Origin: Nitrosopumilales archaeon
GTDB taxonomy: Archaea > Thermoproteota > Nitrososphaeria > Nitrososphaerales > Nitrosopumilaceae
NCBI GenBank assembly: GCA_016276965.1
Contig: JADNRU010000001.1
Coordinates: forward strand, 14,499 to 78,498
DNA length: 64,000 bases
Reading direction: 5' to 3'
Both the position numbers and the translations under genes were made by a program. The notes below the pieces were generated by a model. The model was not told the origin of the DNA. It saw only the letters and a list, made by a program, of their open reading frames with translations, and made no database searches. Below, piece after piece: positions 24,902 through 32,322 of the stretch (positions within the stretch are counted from its first letter, which is position 1; every line of letters begins with the position of its first letter).

Positions 24902-25309
24902 TTAGGTCTGCCACATCTTTTTCCAAGTATCTGCAAATTTGTTCATCATTTCACCATATTCTTTCATAGATTCTAGTCCAGATTCACTCATGGATTTTTG
25001 CCAGCTTTCACTGAATTGTTTGAATGCGTTTACGCTATAGTCATTGATAGCTTTTTGCCAATTTTCGCCAAACTGTTTGAAAACCGTTATTCCTGCTTCA
25101 TTCATAGCTTTTTGCCAATTTTGGCCAAACTCTTGCATGGTATCTTTGCTTGATTCTGAAGATGCTTTTTCCATTACTTCATTATACTTTGTCTGCATTT
25201 CATTGGTTATTTTTTGAAAAGATTCGAATACCTCTCTCCATTTTTCCAGCGAGTTAGTATATTCTTTCCATAATGAATCCCAACCAGCGGGACTTTTGGT
25301 TTCTGACAT
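24902..25309 (-). CDS. Trp-rich helical repeat protein (three 19-aa repeats, (Q/K)(E/Q)FxxxWQK(A/S)(M/I)(N/S))
   Basis: 135 aa. Repeats QEFGQNWQKAMNEAGITVF, KQFGENWQKAINDYSVNAF and KQFSESWQKSMSESGLESM are flanked by related W-x3-W segments. No signal peptide. Confidence 0.6.
   Translation of the reverse strand: MSETKSPAGWDSLWKEYTNSLEKWREVFESFQKITNEMQTKYNEVMEKASSESSKDTMQEFGQNWQKAMNEAGITVFKQFGENWQKAINDYSVNAFKQFSESWQKSMSESGLESMKEYGEMMNKFADTWKKMWQT
24990..25160. repeat. Three tandem 57-bp repeats inside the Trp-rich protein gene
   Basis: (g/c)tttttgcca(a/g)(t/c)ttt... recurs at about 24995, 25052 and 25109, a period of 57 nt (19 codons). Confidence 0.8.
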
Positions 25310-25378
25310 AGATCATTTTTTTCTTTGATGCCATTGATAAAGTGATCCATTTTTAGAAAAATGTTACTTGGTTTTAGA

Positions 25379-26155
25379 TTAACAGAAATTTTGAGTAATG
25401 TACACTTTATCATCCTCATCTATTACTATTCCAATGCCCTCTCGATCAAACATTTCTGTAAGGATATTTTTCCTGTGACCTGGGGATTCCATCCAACCAT
25501 CAACTGCTGCAATTGCAATCTTTTCATTAGTATTCCAATCATAGGATGTAATTATCCCGTTTATGGTATAGTATTTGTCGTAAAGATTTCCTTGAAAGAT
25601 GTTTTCTGCCAAACCAGAATAAATTGATAAACCAACCATTTTTTGACAAGAGTAACTTGCAATCTCTGCTCTGCCAGAAGGATCTACTCCTTCTGGGGTC
25701 TCATGTGAAAAATAATTTCTGCTAGCCATGTCATAACTATGAGATCTTCCAATCTCTGATATTTCTGGATCAAGAGTTAATTCTGATAAATCATGTTTTA
25801 TTCTTTGTTCGTTTGTAAGAATGTGAACTAATTTTTCAATTTCTAGTGGATCAAAATCTGGTTTATTTTTATCATTCTGTGATGACTGTGATCTTTGATC
25901 ATTTTTTAGAACTTTTTCACTAACTATAGTCCCCTTTTGATTAGTTTCTTGTACTACAAGATTTGCTTGTTCTAGAGTTTCTTCTATTGTTACGTCTCCA
26001 CTAACAAGGTCTTGTATAGCTTTGTTAGAAGAATAAAGACCTTGTAAAAGCATTTGAGTAGCATCTGGAGATAATTCTATTACTCCAAACCAAAAAGCAG
26101 CAACTATTAAAAAAATTGGGATTACTACTACAAAGCTATTGGAAGCACCACTCAA
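25379..26155 (-). CDS. Membrane-anchored/secreted CAP (SCP/PR-1, YkwD-like) domain protein
   Basis: TTG start. N-terminal hydrophobic helix FVVVIPIFLIVAAFWFGVI. The C-terminal CAP motifs are RSHSYDMASRNYFSHETPEG and AVDGWMESPGHRKNIL. Confidence 0.8.
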   Translation of the reverse strand: MSGASNSFVVVIPIFLIVAAFWFGVIELSPDATQMLLQGLYSSNKAIQDLVSGDVTIEETLEQANLVVQETNQKGTIVSEKVLKNDQRSQSSQNDKNKPDFDPLEIEKLVHILTNEQRIKHDLSELTLDPEISEIGRSHSYDMASRNYFSHETPEGVDPSGRAEIASYSCQKMVGLSIYSGLAENIFQGNLYDKYYTINGIITSYDWNTNEKIAIAAVDGWMESPGHRKNILTEMFDREGIGIVIDEDDKVYITQNFC

Positions 26156-26243
26156 GGATGTATTTTAAGAAAACTCCATTAGATAAGATTTTCGCAGAAA
26201 ACTACAGCGAACATCATAGATTGTTTTTGAATAAGAAACTAAG

Positions 26244-26359
26244 AGAACGAGGACGTAACTGAATCGTATAACGGTTGAATTATTTTATGGAATTGATGAT
26301 GTCCTCGTTCCAATATTATTATACGTAGCATCATAAGTTAAGAAATTGTTTGTAATTTT
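26244..26359. repeat. Element A: 10-bp-stem hairpin (26245-26254 / 26301-26310, 46-nt loop) plus a 24-bp core (26336-26359) that is the exact reverse complement of 29068-29091
   Basis: Read directly from the sequence: agttaagaaattgtttgtaatttt at 26336-26359, and gaacgaggac ... gtcctcgttc. It is homologous to element B in inverted orientation. Confidence 0.85.
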
Positions 26360-26430
26360 CTCCAAACAAAATGAATTTGCATTTTAATTAGGAACAATGA
26401 AGTTAAATTCCACAAAATTGATCTGAATTT

Positions 26431-26598
26431 ATGGAAATAGAATTTGCAAGTTTTGCTCTTGGATTTCTAGGAATTGGACTATTCTTTTTTGGATTTTTCC
26501 TAGGACAAAAAAGTTCTCCAAAAATTGCAGAAAACCCAAAAGATCTTTCTGAAGGAGTAAAACTAGATCAAGTGGAAATTAATTTAAAAACAGGATGA
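26431..26598 (+). CDS. Possible small membrane protein (55 aa), not in the ORF track
   Basis: Manual translation gives MEIEFASFALGFLGIGLFFFGFFLGQKSSPKIAENPKDLSEGVKLDQVEINLKTG-stop. It has one clear TM helix. Confidence 0.3.
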   Translation: MEIEFASFALGFLGIGLFFFGFFLGQKSSPKIAENPKDLSEGVKLDQVEINLKTG

Positions 26599-26641
26599 TT
26601 ATTTCCAGAAGATTTTCATAAAAGGAAACCTCTAATCTAAT

Positions 26642-27058
26642 ATGGATTATACTCCTCTTTTAGATAAAATAATGGGTCTTGATAAAAACATTCGATTTTC
26701 CCTTATCTGTGATATGCATGGAAATGTAGTAAATACCCGTCACCGAGAAAAACAAGAAAATTTTCTTACAGAAAATGAAACAAAGGATGCTTTACAATAT
26801 TCTGTTGAATCATGGAGAGTACGTAATCATCATTCAAAAAAAATTGGTAAAGGAAAATTTGCTTTTGTAGAATATGAAAAACTTAGACGAATAACGATGC
26901 CATTAAATGAAGATCGTATGTTATTAGTAACTGTTGATAAGGATGGAGAAAATTATGAAATTATTGATCGCATTCTAAATCAGATCAGACATCCAGAAAA
27001 TTTAAAAACAAGTCTCAAACAAGAAAATTCTAGTCTAGACGTTCTATTACCCAAATAG
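26642..27058 (+). CDS. Hypothetical protein
   Basis: 138-aa ORF. The mixed alpha/beta-looking sequence could be a roadblock/LC7-like fold, but this is not verifiable here. Confidence 0.55.
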   Translation: MDYTPLLDKIMGLDKNIRFSLICDMHGNVVNTRHREKQENFLTENETKDALQYSVESWRVRNHHSKKIGKGKFAFVEYEKLRRITMPLNEDRMLLVTVDKDGENYEIIDRILNQIRHPENLKTSLKQENSSLDVLLPK

Positions 27059-27411
27059 TATATTCTGATTTTCTTTTACTAATATTGCTCCGTATGACCC
27101 TTGATGAAATAGTCCATCGGATTAGATTCTCGCCCTATACGGAGATCTCAATTATTTCTAACAAGATTTTTGAAGGATGAGAACGCAGGCGTCATGCCCT
27201 GTTTTTATGGGGAAACCTGACTAACACCATACGTTCCCACCCAATCCAATAAACCAATTTTTGTAAATAATTCCCTGTATGTTCAAAGAAAATACACTGA
27301 CCATAAAGTTGATAGGAATTTGTTATTCAAAATTAGGAAATAAGATGATCCAAGGTGTCAAAAAGTAGAAACTCTTCTGCTGAATAGTAAAATTTCTAAC
27401 TTTTTTCTAAC

Positions 27412-28056
27412 TTGAAAAATAAATGCTTAACTGCCTTTGCTTTTTTTGTCTTAATAGGAACTATAGCAAACTCTGCCGAAGCCCAGCTAATTGCTCCATT
27501 TGATTATACACTTACAGGAGCAGAAATCACAGATTTGAATTTTGATTTCAAAGATTTCGAAGTAATCTTAGATGTAGAAGTTACAGATTCTCCAGCTACT
27601 CTAAAGGTAAGCTTTGATCGAGAATTTTTTGATTCTCAGATTAATGGAGAAGATGACGATTTTATCATAATTGCTGATGGAGATTTGGTCCGTTATACTG
27701 AACTCGAAAATAACAGTAAGAGCAGGACTATAGAATTCCATCTTATGTCTGGTACTGACCAAGTTGAAATATTTGGAACTCACCTCAAGGGAATAACTTC
27801 CGAGTCTCACCAAATAAAGAGTGAGGAACCAACCATAATCATTTTAGATCAAACTGATAAAGTAAATGAATTATTAGCAGAAAATAAACAATTACAGAAA
27901 GAAAACAAACTCCTTACAGAGGACAATGAGGAGCTTGATAGTAGAATTTTTGAGCTTGAAAACTTGGTATCCGCACTAGAGAAACATATCAGTAATCTAA
28001 ACGCTCTAGTTTTGGAACAAGTAAAGGTAATTTACCAATGGGTATTCCCAATTTAA
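27412..28056 (+). CDS. Secreted protein with an acidic beta-rich N-domain and a C-terminal coiled coil
   Basis: TTG start. Signal-peptide-like CLTAFAFFVLIGTIANSAEAQ. The C-terminal heptads are NELLAENKQLQKENKLLTEDNEELDSRIFELENLVSALEKHISNLNALV. Confidence 0.6.
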   Translation: MKNKCLTAFAFFVLIGTIANSAEAQLIAPFDYTLTGAEITDLNFDFKDFEVILDVEVTDSPATLKVSFDREFFDSQINGEDDDFIIIADGDLVRYTELENNSKSRTIEFHLMSGTDQVEIFGTHLKGITSESHQIKSEEPTIIILDQTDKVNELLAENKQLQKENKLLTEDNEELDSRIFELENLVSALEKHISNLNALVLEQVKVIYQWVFPI

Positions 28057-28095
28057 TAAAATTTCCAAAATTAAACATTTAGAGAAATTTTTGAA

Positions 28096-28218
28096 TTAAG
28101 CTATAGCAATTTTTATTTCTCGAAAATCATGTCTTTCTAAATTTTTGTGAAGTATGGCATGTGAATGTTCTTTAAATGTTAGATCACATCTGTAACATTT
28201 CCATGCCATCTTACTCAT
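28096..28218 (-). CDS. Mini C2H2 zinc-finger protein (40 aa)
   Basis: MSKMAWKCYRCDLTFKEHSHAILHKNLERHDFREIKIAIA fits C-X2-C-X12-H-X5-H. The longer track ORF (to 28410) overlaps the next gene, and its N-terminal part looks non-coding. Confidence 0.45.
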   Translation of the reverse strand: MSKMAWKCYRCDLTFKEHSHAILHKNLERHDFREIKIAIA

Positions 28219-28386
28219 ATTGCAATTAACGCAATTTTTGTATTTAATATCCGCGTAGCTTTCGTTCTTTCCATCAATGATGAAAAATTTGAATAAAAAA
28301 ACCGTTGATTTTTTGCTATTGCACTTTAAGGTTTCTATGAAATTATATCTAAAATGTAAATACAATTCCAGAATTCTAATTTTAAA

Positions 28387-29025
28387 TTGGAAATGCTGGG
28401 CAATAAACAAATCATTTTTTTCACTTTGGCATCAACCCTTTTTATTTCATCAATTGCAGGTAATTCAATTTTCCAGACTGCATTTGCTCAGAGTCAAACT
28501 ACCCCCGGATTTACAGTATTAACTGGAGAACAGCTAAAAAACAATCCTTTTGCAACAAACATTCTAGATAGAATTGAGCAATCAAAGATATTACTTGCCC
28601 AACTTCAATCAGGCAAAAAACCAATGACTGAGCATCAAAAATTCATTGAAGAACAACGAACAATTGCTAAAGAGAGGCTTAATGCAGATCTTGCTCGAAT
28701 GAATAAACAATACGAAAATTATACCCCAAGAGCTGCATTTGGAAGCTTTCTTTCAGGAATTAACGGAACATATCATAATCTCTATTGGGACCAGTTTAAC
28801 TATCTTGATAACAAAATTCAGATTGCACGGAGTGCGATGAATGATGTTTTACAAAATGGTGGAAGCTATCAAGAAGCAAGACAAGCATATTTCAAATATG
28901 CATCTATGACCAAAGTAGAAATGATTAAGGTAAACCAAGACCTTAACATCAAGCATGGATTTGCAGATGCTTCTGTTCAAAAAATGTTTGATAAATATGG
29001 CAAACTACCTAGAACTGAAAACTAA
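28387..29025 (+). CDS. Secreted helical protein of unknown function
   Basis: Signal-peptide-like IIFFTLASTLFISSIAGNSIFQTAFAQ. The rest is helical and rich in Gln/Asn/Lys. Confidence 0.6.
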   Translation: MEMLGNKQIIFFTLASTLFISSIAGNSIFQTAFAQSQTTPGFTVLTGEQLKNNPFATNILDRIEQSKILLAQLQSGKKPMTEHQKFIEEQRTIAKERLNADLARMNKQYENYTPRAAFGSFLSGINGTYHNLYWDQFNYLDNKIQIARSAMNDVLQNGGSYQEARQAYFKYASMTKVEMIKVNQDLNIKHGFADASVQKMFDKYGKLPRTEN

Positions 29026-29067
29026 AGTTTGTTTTTGAATTTTTCAAATATTAAGAAATGTTAGGAT

Positions 29068-29176
29068 AAAATTACAAACAATTTCTTAACTATTTACTAT
29101 ACTATTGTATGCTAGACGAGGACTTTACCATATCTTGGCAAAATTAAGGGTTGTTTCAGTCATTTGTCCTCGTTCT
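29068..29176. repeat. Element B: 24-bp core (29068-29091) plus a hairpin (29116-29123 / 29166-29173, extendable by one G-U; 42-nt loop). It is an inverted homologue of element A.
   Basis: aaaattacaaacaatttcttaact at 29068-29091 is the exact reverse complement of 26336-26359. acgaggac ... gtcctcgt stems and the ttcagt loop block are shared with element A. A T-run (ctattttttt) follows the hairpin. Confidence 0.85.
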
Positions 29177-29306
29177 ATTTTTTTCCCAAAATAATCCAAA
29201 TCCATACCTATTTTGAGTCTACTGAGATTCCAAATTAAGCTAAATTGATGAAAATAAAGCTAGAACTGTAAACGATCCTAATTAATTCCAATGGAGTAAC
29301 AATGGT

Positions 29307-29960
29307 ATGACATACCAGAGTCTGGCAACTAATCCGTATGAATTACTAGAAAAGGTTGTACCCGACGAATCCGACTATAAGGTTGCTTTTTCTGGTAAGG
29401 TAGAAAGCTACTGTATTGGGATGGTAGATATCGTAAACTCTACAAGAATTTCTGCAGGATTACGTGAAGATGGATGGTGCAAATATTACATAATTTTCTT
29501 AAATTCAATGGCTAAAATTCTAAAGAGATTTGGGGGGATTCCCATTAAAAATAATGGAGATAGTTTATTGTATTATTTTCCACAATCAGCAGACCGTAAA
29601 ACCAAATATGGCTTTGTTAGTTGCTTGGAGTGTAGTCTAGCAATGATTGAGGCACAGGAACTCTTGTCACATACCTCTCAAAAAAATGGTTTGCCCAGTC
29701 TTAATTATCGAATCAGTTCTGATTATGGCAAAGTAACAATCATGGAGCCAAATAATTTATCTCCAATGGATGTAATGGGCCCCCCAGTAAACATGTGTTC
29801 AAAAATGAACCATAACGCAGAGGTAAATGGAATAGTTATCGGAGGAGATATGTATGAAATGGTTAAAGATTTGCATGACTATCGTTTCAAGCAGGTAGAT
29901 GGGTATTCAATTGGTTTGAAGTATGCGTACCCTGTTTACTCTGTTTACAGGAAGCATTGA
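29307..29960 (+). CDS. Stand-alone class III nucleotidyl (adenylate/guanylate) cyclase-homology-domain protein
   Basis: 217 aa. GMVDIVNSTRIS (first metal Asp), IKNNGDSLLYYF (second metal Asp), YRISSDYGKV and GPPVNMCSKM (Asn present, Lys where Arg is usual). Confidence 0.7.
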   Translation: MTYQSLATNPYELLEKVVPDESDYKVAFSGKVESYCIGMVDIVNSTRISAGLREDGWCKYYIIFLNSMAKILKRFGGIPIKNNGDSLLYYFPQSADRKTKYGFVSCLECSLAMIEAQELLSHTSQKNGLPSLNYRISSDYGKVTIMEPNNLSPMDVMGPPVNMCSKMNHNAEVNGIVIGGDMYEMVKDLHDYRFKQVDGYSIGLKYAYPVYSVYRKH

Positions 29961-30041
29961 TTTAATAAAATTGTCCTCAAAATTAAGAGATTTCCAGATA
30001 CAGTCAAGTACCATTTGACGTATTAAAACAAGGGCAAAAGG

Positions 30042-30206
30042 ATGGGGACAATGAGAAAAAAGAAAAAAATAATCCAAACAAATTCAGATGAGCATAAAGT
30101 TGAATGTCCCGACTGTCCTACTGAAGCCTCTGTTTATTGGGATATCCGTTACAACGGTTATAGAGGAACCTGTGAGGTATGTGAAACAAACTGGCCTGAA
30201 TCATAA
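30042..30206 (+). CDS. Small zinc-ribbon protein (54 aa), paralogue of 50991..51185; not in the ORF track
   Basis: Manual translation gives MGTMRKKKKIIQTNSDEHKVECPDCPTEASVYWDIRYNGYRGTCEVCETNWPES-stop. Compare ...VRCPICNREIQPYWEPRYNGVRATCNICGTNWQES-stop at 50991. Confidence 0.5.
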   Translation: MGTMRKKKKIIQTNSDEHKVECPDCPTEASVYWDIRYNGYRGTCEVCETNWPES

Positions 30207-30213
30207 ATTCAAA

Positions 30214-30597
30214 TTATCTGGATGAATACATCAAATATCCATTCTTTACTTTCTTAATTGTGTCTATCACATGATTGGTTTCGTATGGCTTGACTATTGT
30301 TGCTGAAGCCTGAAGTCCTCTTAGGGTCTTTTCAGTATGTTGAGATAATGAGCCAGTAATCATAATGATTTTGGCCTTGGGATCAAATTCTCGAATTTTT
30401 TGCAACCCATGATATCCATCAAATTTAGGCATAACCAGATCCATTAGAACAAGATCAGGTTTGTATTTTTTATACAACTCAACTGCCTCCTTTCCATTAT
30501 TTCCTCTAGCCAAAACCTTAATGTCATTCATTTCTAGATATTCACACAATACTTCTGCAGCATCATCATAATCATCAATAACAATAACACTAGTCAT
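30214..30597 (-). CDS. Stand-alone response-regulator receiver (CheY-like) protein
   Basis: 127 aa. VIVIDDYDD, the phospho-acceptor context DLVLMDLVMPKFDG, MITGS and the conserved Lys in TIVKPY. Confidence 0.85.
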   Translation of the reverse strand: MTSVIVIDDYDDAAEVLCEYLEMNDIKVLARGNNGKEAVELYKKYKPDLVLMDLVMPKFDGYHGLQKIREFDPKAKIIMITGSLSQHTEKTLRGLQASATIVKPYETNHVIDTIKKVKNGYLMYSSR

Positions 30598-30767
30598 TAG
30601 ATGCTTGAATTAGTCAAAAATCATAATATCCTCTTGTATGTTTGCTGTGAACATCTGCATAATTCAGATCTCTTATACCTAATTATTACTTAGATTGGCC
30701 AAATTGGAAATAATAAAACCATAAAAATTCCGCACCCGATATATGAAAAAATGTAGTATATACTAAC

Positions 30768-31007
30768 ATGTATGAAATCAGGGCAAATCTGGGCAGAGGC
30801 ATGGTAAAAAGCCTGTCATCTATCATGACAGGCAGGGAAGTCCCTTTGGAAAACATTTGGGAAACAATTCAAGATTTTGGTATAACCAGAAGCGACCTTA
30901 AGAAACTAAATCCATCCTACAAAGAACTCCATGAAGTATATTCGGCTATCAAGGCTTACCGCCTCAGTGTAAAGTATCTCAAACAATTAGCTACTAGTGT
31001 TGAATAA
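30768..31007 (+). CDS. Hypothetical protein
   Basis: 79-aa ORF. No motif recognised. Confidence 0.45.
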   Translation: MYEIRANLGRGMVKSLSSIMTGREVPLENIWETIQDFGITRSDLKKLNPSYKELHEVYSAIKAYRLSVKYLKQLATSVE

Positions 31008-31395
31008 AACTTCATTTTTGGTAAAATTTTTAATTCATGAAGGGAGCCGTGAGGCTCCCCAACATGATACAACTCCTCTACCGTTCTGGATTGGTCGGGA
31101 TTACTTTCATTGTGGTCTGGGCAATGAGGCTACAAGTAATTTCTCATTTTGTATTAAAGCGTTTACGTAGAAATTATCAGTATGATCTATATACTCAAAA
31201 TTAAAAACTGCAGCTAGTATTTGGGGCTGTCACCAAAGTACTTTCGTTTTTGGTCTTAAGCTCCAAAATACTGGTGTAAAAAATTGGCCAAGTTAAATCC
31301 CAAAGGAAAACTCAAACCATATTCATCAAATATGATTTACCCACTCTCAATTGTTTTACTAACTTGGGCAGTATACATTTGGAGATAAATTCAGA

Positions 31396-32322
31396 TTATA
31401 ATGCAGAATCTACCATCAGAGCAATGAATAGTACTGCCAAGTATGGGCTAGAAAACTTAAACAAAGTCCAAGAAGCTTTCTCGGTTGGTTTTTTGATTAC
31501 CCATGCACTCAAAACCATCATAAGAATTCCTGAAGCTATAGCAGTATACAAGTAAACTGGACCCATTACTGAAGTGCCATCTTCATGAGTTAGGAAAAAT
31601 GGAACTATACTAAATAACACCATCATTAGAGTTGTTCCTGCAATTATTCTAGCAGCTGCATTTTCAGAACAAATAGCAGTAAGCATTGGAACACTCACTT
31701 TGTTGTAATCTTCTTTGAAGTGTAGAGTAAGGGCCCAAATGTGCATTGGAATCCATACAAACACCAAAGCAGCCATCACTAGACCCAAATCCCATAATCC
31801 CTGAGTAGTAACTGCCACATATCCTATCATTGCTGGTGCACCTCCTGAAAATCCACCAAGAATGATGTTAGTCCAACTTCTACGCTTTAACAAATAACTA
31901 TACACGAAGATATTATCAGCTAGTCCAAATGCCATAAACGAACCTGCCAAAATCCCCTGCCAAAAAGTTGTAGTGTATGATATTCCAAAAGCACAGGCCA
32001 AAGAAATACCTGCTAAAACCAAACCAAAATCTCTAGCTTTTTCTGGGGAAATTCTCCCGCTTGGTATTGGTCTATTCTTAGTTCTTTCCATAATTGCATC
32101 AATATCTCTATCATGATAATTTGTCAAAGTATTTGCTGCAGCTGAACCTGCAGCAACTCCTGCAATCATGAGAGCCCAAGTAATTGGAGATACATCAATA
32201 GAGTAAATGTTAGAGGCTGTGATCGCTGCAGCAAAAGCAGTAAACACCAAAAGGTACCAAATTTTCGGTTTTGTTAGTTCATAGTAATTTTTGAATCGAG
32301 ATTCAGTTTTTGCCCTTTGCAT
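31396..32322 (-). CDS. ctaB: Protoheme IX farnesyltransferase (heme O synthase)
   Basis: 308 aa polytopic UbiA-family protein with NTLTNYHDRDIDAIMERTKNRPIPSGRI. Confidence 0.9.
   Translation of the reverse strand: MQRAKTESRFKNYYELTKPKIWYLLVFTAFAAAITASNIYSIDVSPITWALMIAGVAAGSAAANTLTNYHDRDIDAIMERTKNRPIPSGRISPEKARDFGLVLAGISLACAFGISYTTTFWQGILAGSFMAFGLADNIFVYSYLLKRRSWTNIILGGFSGGAPAMIGYVAVTTQGLWDLGLVMAALVFVWIPMHIWALTLHFKEDYNKVSVPMLTAICSENAAARIIAGTTLMMVLFSIVPFFLTHEDGTSVMGPVYLYTAIASGILMMVLSAWVIKKPTEKASWTLFKFSSPYLAVLFIALMVDSAL

Follow-up and report, generated by a model that had tools for sequence, protein, structure and literature searches.

Intergenic small RNA (sRNA) genes of archaea, as known from Haloferax, Methanosarcina, and Sulfolobus, are independent units with a promoter composed of a TFB recognition element (BRE) and a TATA box and with oligo-T termination. 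Here, we analyzed a 64,000-nucleotide (nt) stretch of DNA (the window) from a low-GC thaumarchaeon (contig JADNRU010000001.1, positions 14,499 to 78,498), the proteins of which are identical to KAG0512234-44 of the metagenome-assembled genome (MAG) "Nitrosopumilales archaeon NPMRD1." Two elements of about 110 nt (A and B), each made up of a conserved core and a hairpin, lie in inverted orientation around a 2.7-kb segment of the window that carries five open reading frames (ORFs). We consider them most likely to be two paralogous, divergently transcribed genes for hairpin RNAs of 60 to 70 nt that have a promoter in common. The predicted genes resemble the known archaeal sRNA genes in their size (60 to 70 nt), in having their own promoter at the canonical distance, in their oligo-T end and intergenic location, and in being conserved above their flanks. 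Unlike those genes, the present family has a conserved promoter of ~35 nt that is common to micro-protein genes, a constant stem, and four loop types.

An earlier note on this DNA had described an inverted 24-bp repeat that was not expected by chance and a homologous hairpin beside each core, on the outer side. Both descriptions were borne out. The 24-mer AGTTAAGAAATTGTTTGTAATTTT occurs in two exact copies in the 64 kb, at 26336-26359 (plus strand) and 29068-29091 (minus strand), with no third copy in the window at up to 3 mismatches and no matches in 100 shuffles. The inverted repeat reaches 33 nt at 94% identity (26336-26368 and 29059-29091), and an nhmmer search of the window with an A/B profile gave no third copy of the element. 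Each hairpin lies on the side of its core that faces away from the bracketed segment, at a distance of 25 nt (A) or 24 nt (B). In hairpin A, GAACGAGGAC (26245-26254) pairs with GTCCTCGTTC (26301-26310) over 10 bp, leaving a loop of 46 nt; in hairpin B, ACGAGGAC (29116-29123) pairs with GTCCTCGT (29166-29173) over 8 bp plus a G.U pair, leaving a loop of 42 nt. These stems and loop sizes reproduce those given in the note. The pattern ACGAG-N36-62-CTCGT has only two sites in the window, namely, hairpins A and B, versus 0.07 expected. A "ttcagt" block listed in the note as conserved is present in copies A and B but is not conserved in the relatives of copy A. The predicted parts of the two units are as follows.

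26336..26371, minus strand: promoter A, which reads TTGTTTGGAGAAAATTACAAACAATTTCTTAACT and consists of an upstream block TGTnTGG, the 13-mer, and a TATA-like box
26345-26357, minus strand: 13-mer AATTACAAACAAT of promoter A
26338-26345, minus strand: TATA-like TTTCTTAA of promoter A
26312..26335, minus strand: spacer A, to the predicted transcription start; poorly conserved, AT-rich beside the start (GTATAATAATATT)
26244..26311, minus strand: predicted hairpin RNA A of ~68 nt, type A; 5' arm GGAACGAGGAC (reverse complement of 26301-26311) and 3' arm GUCCUCGUUC (reverse complement of 26245-26254)
29058..29091, plus strand: promoter B, ATGTTAGGATAAAATTACAAACAATTTCTTAACT, with the 13-mer at 29070-29082 and TATA-like TTTCTTAA at 29082-29089
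29092..29113, plus strand: spacer B, to the predicted transcription start
29114..29175, plus strand: predicted hairpin RNA B of ~62 nt, type B; 5' arm (AG)ACGAGGAC (29116-29123) and 3' arm GUCCUCGUUC (29166-29175)
29176..29184, plus strand: oligo-T tract B, predicted termination signal (TATTTTTTT, with T7 at 29178-29184)

The loop of hairpin A holds CAUCAUCAAUUCCAUAA...CAACCGUUAUACGAUUC, and that of hairpin B holds UUACC..CUUGG..GGUUGUUUCAGUCAUUUGU.

Relatives of the elements were collected by scanning the 20-mer TTAAGAAATTGTTTGTAATT against species-representative genomes and a core-plus-ACGAG pattern against metagenomes (related loci are given L numbers). The 20-mer was found in 23 stretches, 16 of which are thaumarchaeal (Nitrosopumilaceae MAGs, CSP1-1, and MnTg01), with up to three copies per genome on different contigs; the seven remaining matches, in unrelated organisms, are probably due to chance. 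The core-plus-ACGAG pattern yielded 26 more metagenome loci, and nhmmer with the A/B profile detected the element (E about 1e-13) in L017 and L018, where the nucleotidyl cyclase encoded near element B is 65 to 70% identical. A search of a viral collection returned one chance-like match. Across the Nitrosopumilaceae genomes and metagenomes, the modules are single, tandem, or back to back at 36 to 240 nt from each other. Read outward, the core (AATTACAAACAATTTCTTA...) heads three kinds of unit, being followed by a gene for a protein of 41 to 54 amino acids (aa), by a gene for a protein of ~35 aa, or by a hairpin.

A hairpin unit and a 54-aa gene, both headed by a core, stand in tandem on the same strand ~250 nt apart in L026, L027, L030, L033, L040, L046, L061, L063, and L065, and the cores are therefore not intrinsically an inverted pair. 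Back-to-back cores, each reading outward and 36 to 240 nt apart, are found in L017, L018, L034, L057, and L068; the second, inverted core is 36 nt from the first in L017 and 84 nt in L018. In these last two loci, a Zn-ribbon gene lies beyond a hairpin and its core on one side, and the second core leads into a 41- to 48-aa gene on the other, which is the topology of the window without the 2.7 kb. As an example of divergent archaeal promoters, the window has the same topology as the back-to-back cores of all five loci, but 2.7 kb and five genes separate its two promoters, which therefore no longer make up one regulatory region. We also observed a conserved block, CGCGTAGGACTGATAAnTTATTCATTTT, between the Zn-ribbon gene and hairpin A in L017 (5115-5150) and L018 (5598-5632).

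All hairpin units share the stem GGAACGAGGAC/GUCCUCGUUCC. By their loops, they can be divided into four types, with conservation inside each type; the members are as follows.

Type A: window A, L017, L018, L034, L057, L068, and L069
Type A2: eleven distinct units
Type B: window B, L049, and twelve further distinct units
Type C: L048, L050, and L053

Window copies A and B belong to different loop types, which indicates that they are old paralogues rather than recent copies of each other and explains their diverged loops. The view taken in the earlier note, that the pair does not stem from a recent duplication, agrees with this result.

The conserved core is most likely an archaeal promoter of the BRE/TATA type that is read away from the 2.7-kb segment. 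Its consensus across 50 distinct units of the family is aaTGTnTGgaaaAAATTACAAACAATTTCTTAa. The distance from the 13-mer to the ATG is 31 to 33 nt in 21 distinct micro-protein units, and the distance from the 13-mer to the first base of the stem is 30 to 34 nt in 29 distinct hairpin units. Since the ATG and the hairpin start in the same register after the 13-mer, TTTCTTAA would be located at about -32 to -25, the usual position of a TATA box, as judged by position. If the micro-protein genes are leaderless or nearly so, as we assumed in line with general knowledge of archaea, AAACAA falls at the BRE position. TTTAWA-like boxes are present at a similar distance from the ATG upstream of other genes in the window, and one of them (upstream of 6670) reads AAACAATTTCTAGA. 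The block upstream of the 13-mer is conserved although the search patterns did not demand it.

Promoter B has features of its own. Its upstream block and spacer (29058-29113) are closer to the promoter of the 41- to 48-aa gene (L017 5331-5400 and L018 5832-5890) than to type B promoters elsewhere, and in its upstream part it is similar to the inverted second core found in L017, L018, and L057, which is the promoter of a 41- to 54-aa gene. In the window lineage, promoter B is followed by a type B hairpin, whereas the gene for the micro-protein was not found in the window. This pattern hints that sequence at the transcription start was replaced or deleted.

In relatives, the same promoter appears to drive two families of unannotated micro-proteins. 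The first consists of proteins of 41 to 54 aa (..FILNDVAEVVLNWNLG..AIKKINSAFAKQ), with the ATG following the core and the gene often standing beside ilvC and a hairpin unit. The 54-aa family forms 22 clusters in the protein database, all members of which are named "hypothetical," and it had no significant Pfam match. The second consists of proteins of ~35 aa (MKGFFKK..LPENALVWAGLLK), also with the ATG following the core. Promoter-linked micro-protein genes were observed in L026-L043 and L046-L066 (e.g., L033 3394-3604, L022 3281, and L024 2675). Neither family was found in the window.

Several features of the hairpin units point to small genes read outward. A run of at least five T's occurs within 16 nt past the 3' arm in 24 of the 29 distinct units (at least four T's in 28 of 29), compared with a background of 6.9% and with 1 of 29 on the opposite strand. 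In the type B alignment (12 sequences), a terminal stem and an internal stem are formed, with 95.5% of the cells paired in the outward direction; none of 500 shuffles reached this value, and slid controls gave 31 to 61%. G.U pairs, which are mismatches on the other strand, account for 26 of 176 cells, and the type B covariation score was equalled by 3 of 500 shuffles. The terminal stem of the whole family is 85.5% paired, and the constant stem has compensatory changes from G-C to A-U in L030 and from A-U to G-C in L018, L034, and type C. Conservation is also selective. Identity is 87% in the promoter and 74 to 87% in the hairpin, compared with 60 to 67% in the spacer and downstream sequence, which is near the baseline for short AT-rich sequence; among the relatives of type A, spacers are 56 to 69% identical versus 87% for both promoter and hairpin. 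The type A hairpins of L017, L018, L034, L057, L068, and L069 are 82 to 92% identical. Neither the window nor 336 kb of related loci contained a hairpin with a stem of at least 7 bp that lacked the promoter. Paralogous genes for small structured RNAs had been one of the possibilities raised in the earlier note, and the family, the promoter register, the strand-specific T-runs, and the selective conservation favor it; to this we add the outward reading and the assignment of the two copies to two loop types.

Other observations weigh against this interpretation. Window copy A has no clean oligo-T past its hairpin (UCUUAGUUUCUU), and unit A may read through towards the neighboring CAP-domain gene. 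Since sequence is conserved in both arms, covariation in the terminal stem of the whole family is weak; four pairs have double changes, a number not above that of the shuffles. For types A and A2, folding favors the opposite strand (mean of -21.7 versus -16.6 kcal/mol), with the outward strand better in 0 of 18; the C/A-rich loops of type A explain part of this preference. All type A2 copies carry an A.C mismatch in the outward direction that is a G.U pair inward. The strand assignment of type A is based on the promoter register and the T-runs, not on structure. As for the promoter, TTTCTTAA is no textbook TATA box, and the sequences were gathered by exact core patterns, so that conservation within the 19- to 20-mer arises partly by construction. 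A search for antisense targets of the RNAs within the window showed no complementarity above chance, and neither did a comparison of the sRNA loops with neighboring micro-protein mRNAs (z of -2.3 to +1.5). The transcription of the units, the starts and ends of the transcripts, and the role of the RNAs are what we infer from these sequence patterns.

Type A2 has a peculiarity in the stem. In these units (e.g., L025 2122 and L067 1370), the 3' arm motif CUCGUU(C/U) is doubled in tandem (..CUCGUUCAUGCCCUCGUUCC), and the 5' arm could pair with either copy. The doubling is not present in window copy A. In type A2, the tandem motif may act as an alternative-pairing switch.

The genes around and between the two elements are as follows.

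25379-26155, minus strand: CAP-domain gene, to the left of element A; copy A lies 88 nt upstream of the gene
Between elements A and B, in this order: ORFs of 55, 138, 214, 40 (minus strand), and 212 aa
27059-27411: noncoding gap of 350 nt between the 138-aa and 214-aa ORFs, slightly GC-richer
29307-29960, plus strand: class III nucleotidyl cyclase gene, to the right of element B; copy B lies 130 nt upstream
30042-30206: 54-aa Zn-ribbon ORF, downstream of the cyclase gene
Right of the cyclase gene and the Zn-ribbon ORF, minus strand: response regulator gene

Domains of the CAP, cyclase, response regulator, and UbiD families were detected in a Pfam scan of all ten neighboring proteins, and none of a recombinase or transposase. 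The gap at 27059-27411 had no Rfam match and folds like shuffled sequence (z of -1.07). Farther to the right, between the response regulator and UbiA genes, ~260 nt without a long ORF (31015-31290, minus strand) are 74 to 76% identical to ORF-free stretches upstream of CAP in L017, L018, L019, L020, and L034. RNAalifold predicted four conserved helices with three compensatory pairs in this stretch, which had no Rfam match and is a candidate for an unannotated structured RNA.

The core could also be a shared promoter or operator, with the hairpin acting at the DNA level as a palindrome (a regulator site or a roadblock at the start) or, in the RNA, as a 5' leader or attenuator that controls read-through into the CAP gene (A) and the cyclase gene (B). 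Both stem arms are conserved in sequence and not in pairing alone, the strand preference in folding energy is ambiguous for type A, and copy A, which is without a clean terminator, is just 88 nt from CAP, with copy B 130 nt from the cyclase gene. We nevertheless regard this reading as unlikely. The gene downstream of the hairpin varies by lineage, being a CAP, cyclase, or Zn-ribbon gene, and in L033 (CSP1-1) it is convergent: that locus consists of ilvC on the minus strand, a core leading into a 54-aa gene, a core leading into a type B hairpin and T6, and then a 57-aa Zn-ribbon gene in convergent orientation, with its 3' end facing the hairpin. With a convergent gene directly past it, the hairpin of L033 is not a leader there and must be a separate unit. 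Moreover, a mere palindrome needs no conserved loop, whereas the loops are strongly conserved within each type (82 to 92% for type A); arms 42 to 46 bp apart would be unusual for a dimeric DNA-binding site; and inspection showed that TATA-like boxes of their own stand close to the starts of the CAP and Zn-ribbon genes. The shared operator or leader proposed in the earlier note therefore holds for the 24-mer, as a shared, promoter-like regulatory element, but not for the hairpin as the leader of one gene. It is scarcely credible that the core is instead a micro-ORF on the outward strand (M-S-G-K-N-Y-K-Q-F-L-N) for an upstream or leader peptide. Many copies do read ATG TCT GGA AAA AAT TAC AAA CAA TTT CTT AAC TAA outward, and codons 2 to 4 have changes of the K/R and S/Y type, but the start codon is lost (CTG, TTG, GTG, or ACG) in many copies, including window A and all type B units. 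In addition, in-frame stops interrupt window B (ATG TTA GGA TAA) and type C (ATG TTC TAA), and there is zero synonymous variation over the 13-mer. This ORF was rejected, as were two ORFs over the hairpin, one on the inward strand (MELMMSS...), with tails that vary in sequence and length (13 or 35 codons), and one on the outward strand (MERGHH), which is found in type A2 only.

The 2.7 kb between the elements is most likely ordinary chromosomal DNA and not a mobile cassette. A perfect 24-bp inverted repeat around five small genes is what one would look for in a nonautonomous mobile or invertible cassette or in recombination sites that rearrange the segment, and the five ORFs described in the earlier note do exist, with no recombinase domain in any of them. 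Gene order near the modules varies by lineage, the distance between promoters ranges from 36 nt to 2.7 kb, and a Zn-ribbon gene lies between the promoters in L057 and L068, which places the modules at the boundaries of rearranged blocks. As in miniature inverted-repeat transposable elements, terminal inverted repeats, and invertible segments, short inverted repeats surround a segment that carries genes, and a genome has related copies at several loci; here, unlike in those systems, target-site duplication, a transposase or invertase, and polymorphism are all absent, and each copy has a gene or hairpin placed in promoter register. The outer flanks (...aactaaga|GAACGAGG and CCTCGTTC|tattttttt), where the earlier note had proposed looking for target-site duplications, have no common direct repeat, and composition is uniform across the region, with the GC content of the segment matching that of its flanks. 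Synteny was examined in contigs from many samples whose cyclase is identical to that of the window or falls in its 90%-identity cluster (L001-L016). All close-relative contigs that span the segment (L001, L002, L004, L005, and L011) agree in gene content, order, and orientation, and L049 (96% identical) and L060 (99.5%) run collinear with the window from end to end. In these assemblies, which hide minority orientations, the segment showed no polymorphism in presence/absence or orientation. In the distant relatives (L017-L020 and L034; cyclase 65 to 70% identical), the gene order differs, with a CAP gene (plus strand) followed by a response regulator gene (minus strand), a cyclase gene (plus strand), and, in all but L018, an orthologue (plus strand) of p212, the 212-aa ORF; L018 has an orthologue of p214, the 214-aa ORF, and one of a 135-aa neighbor a few kb away. 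Thus, two or more of the five genes between the elements are residents of the locus that have been shuffled locally. No single inversion explains the change between the gene order of the window and that of L017 and L018. A search with the cyclase protein in species-representative genomes gave no match, there being no close representative of the lineage among them. In place of the absence, inversion, or relocation of the segment that the earlier note had proposed to look for, close relatives show collinearity, and in distant ones p212 and p214 lie nearby in another order. At other loci the copies stand alone or in tandem, the 336 kb of related sequence and the window yielded no copy lacking the promoter, and promoter function accounts for the repeat. 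Taken together, this evidence makes a cassette or a pair of recombination sites highly improbable, and the proposal of terminal inverted repeats was abandoned.

A homologue of the window's Zn-ribbon ORF (30042-30206) was observed between the back-to-back cores of L057 (641-787) and L068 (781-939), which indicates that the space between the promoters took up different genes depending on the lineage.

We also compared the elements with known RNA and DNA families. Box C/D and H/ACA sRNAs are likewise multicopy families of 50- to 75-nt RNAs with constant protein-binding elements and a variable interior. Inspection of the present hairpins, unlike box C/D RNAs, revealed no RUGAUGA...CUGA in the required order on either strand; there is no UGAUGA in the outward direction, and an inward UGAUGA beside the 3' arm is in the wrong order. 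Unlike in H/ACA RNAs, the 3' arm is followed outward by (A/C/U)UUUU and never by ACA. With boxes absent or misordered, a box C/D, H/ACA, or K-turn reading was rejected, as were archaeal origin (ORB) repeats, in view of the absence of orc1/cdc6 nearby and of an ORB dyad and of the cores being 36 nt apart in relatives. Searches against Rfam 15 gave no match at the gathering score in the window and none at an E value of up to 1 in five related loci; at an E value of up to 5, the region 25300-31400 had one spurious match, which lies inside the CAP coding region. Our search of the literature on Nitrosopumilus sRNAs, thaumarchaeal promoters, and the motif found nothing relevant to a hairpin-RNA family. 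An undescribed family of archaeal small RNAs with a regulon-type promoter is the best-supported description of these elements.

If the elements are such genes, each ~110-nt element would form a small, complete transcription unit that points away from the 2.7-kb segment. TTTCTTAA would serve as the TATA box and AAACAA as the BRE, and the conserved upstream block TGTnTGGnAAAAATTAC may bind a dedicated activator or a TFB paralogue. RNA polymerase would start ~24 to 27 nt downstream, where the first G of the stem lies, and the oligo-T tract would end transcription, yielding an RNA of 60 to 70 nt, the 5' and 3' ends of which would pair as the constant stem GGAACGAGGAC/GUCCUCGUUCC. Units A (minus strand) and B (plus strand) would be paralogues of loop types A and B in a family present in part of the Nitrosopumilaceae, and the five ordinary chromosomal genes that separate the promoters in the window lineage, where relatives have 36 to 240 nt, would reflect local gene shuffling. 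The constant stem could be a protein-binding handle, with the type-specific conserved loops carrying the specificity and acting in trans, although this is a guess. A more far-reaching and rather improbable extension is that the hairpin RNAs belong with the two micro-protein families to a single dedicated regulon. A specialized TFB/TBP paralogue or activator would recognize the promoter of this regulon, which is unusually long (~35 conserved nt), the stem would serve as the handle for an RNA-protein machine in ammonia-oxidizing archaea, and the loops would be guides or specificity elements; the modules may also be recombination hot spots that reshuffle their neighborhood.

The case illustrates that a perfect inverted repeat around a block of genes can be two divergent copies of a promoter, which corrects a tempting misreading. 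Few archaea on Earth are as abundant as the ammonia oxidizers of the Nitrosopumilaceae, yet we found almost nothing on their small RNAs or regulon-specific promoters. If the units are expressed, they would constitute a new small-RNA family with four loop types, and the promoter motif would link these hairpin RNAs to two unannotated micro-protein families. The motif (TGTnTGGnAAAAATTACAAACAATTTCTTA) would then offer a simple sequence handle for retrieving the whole set in any genome of the clade.

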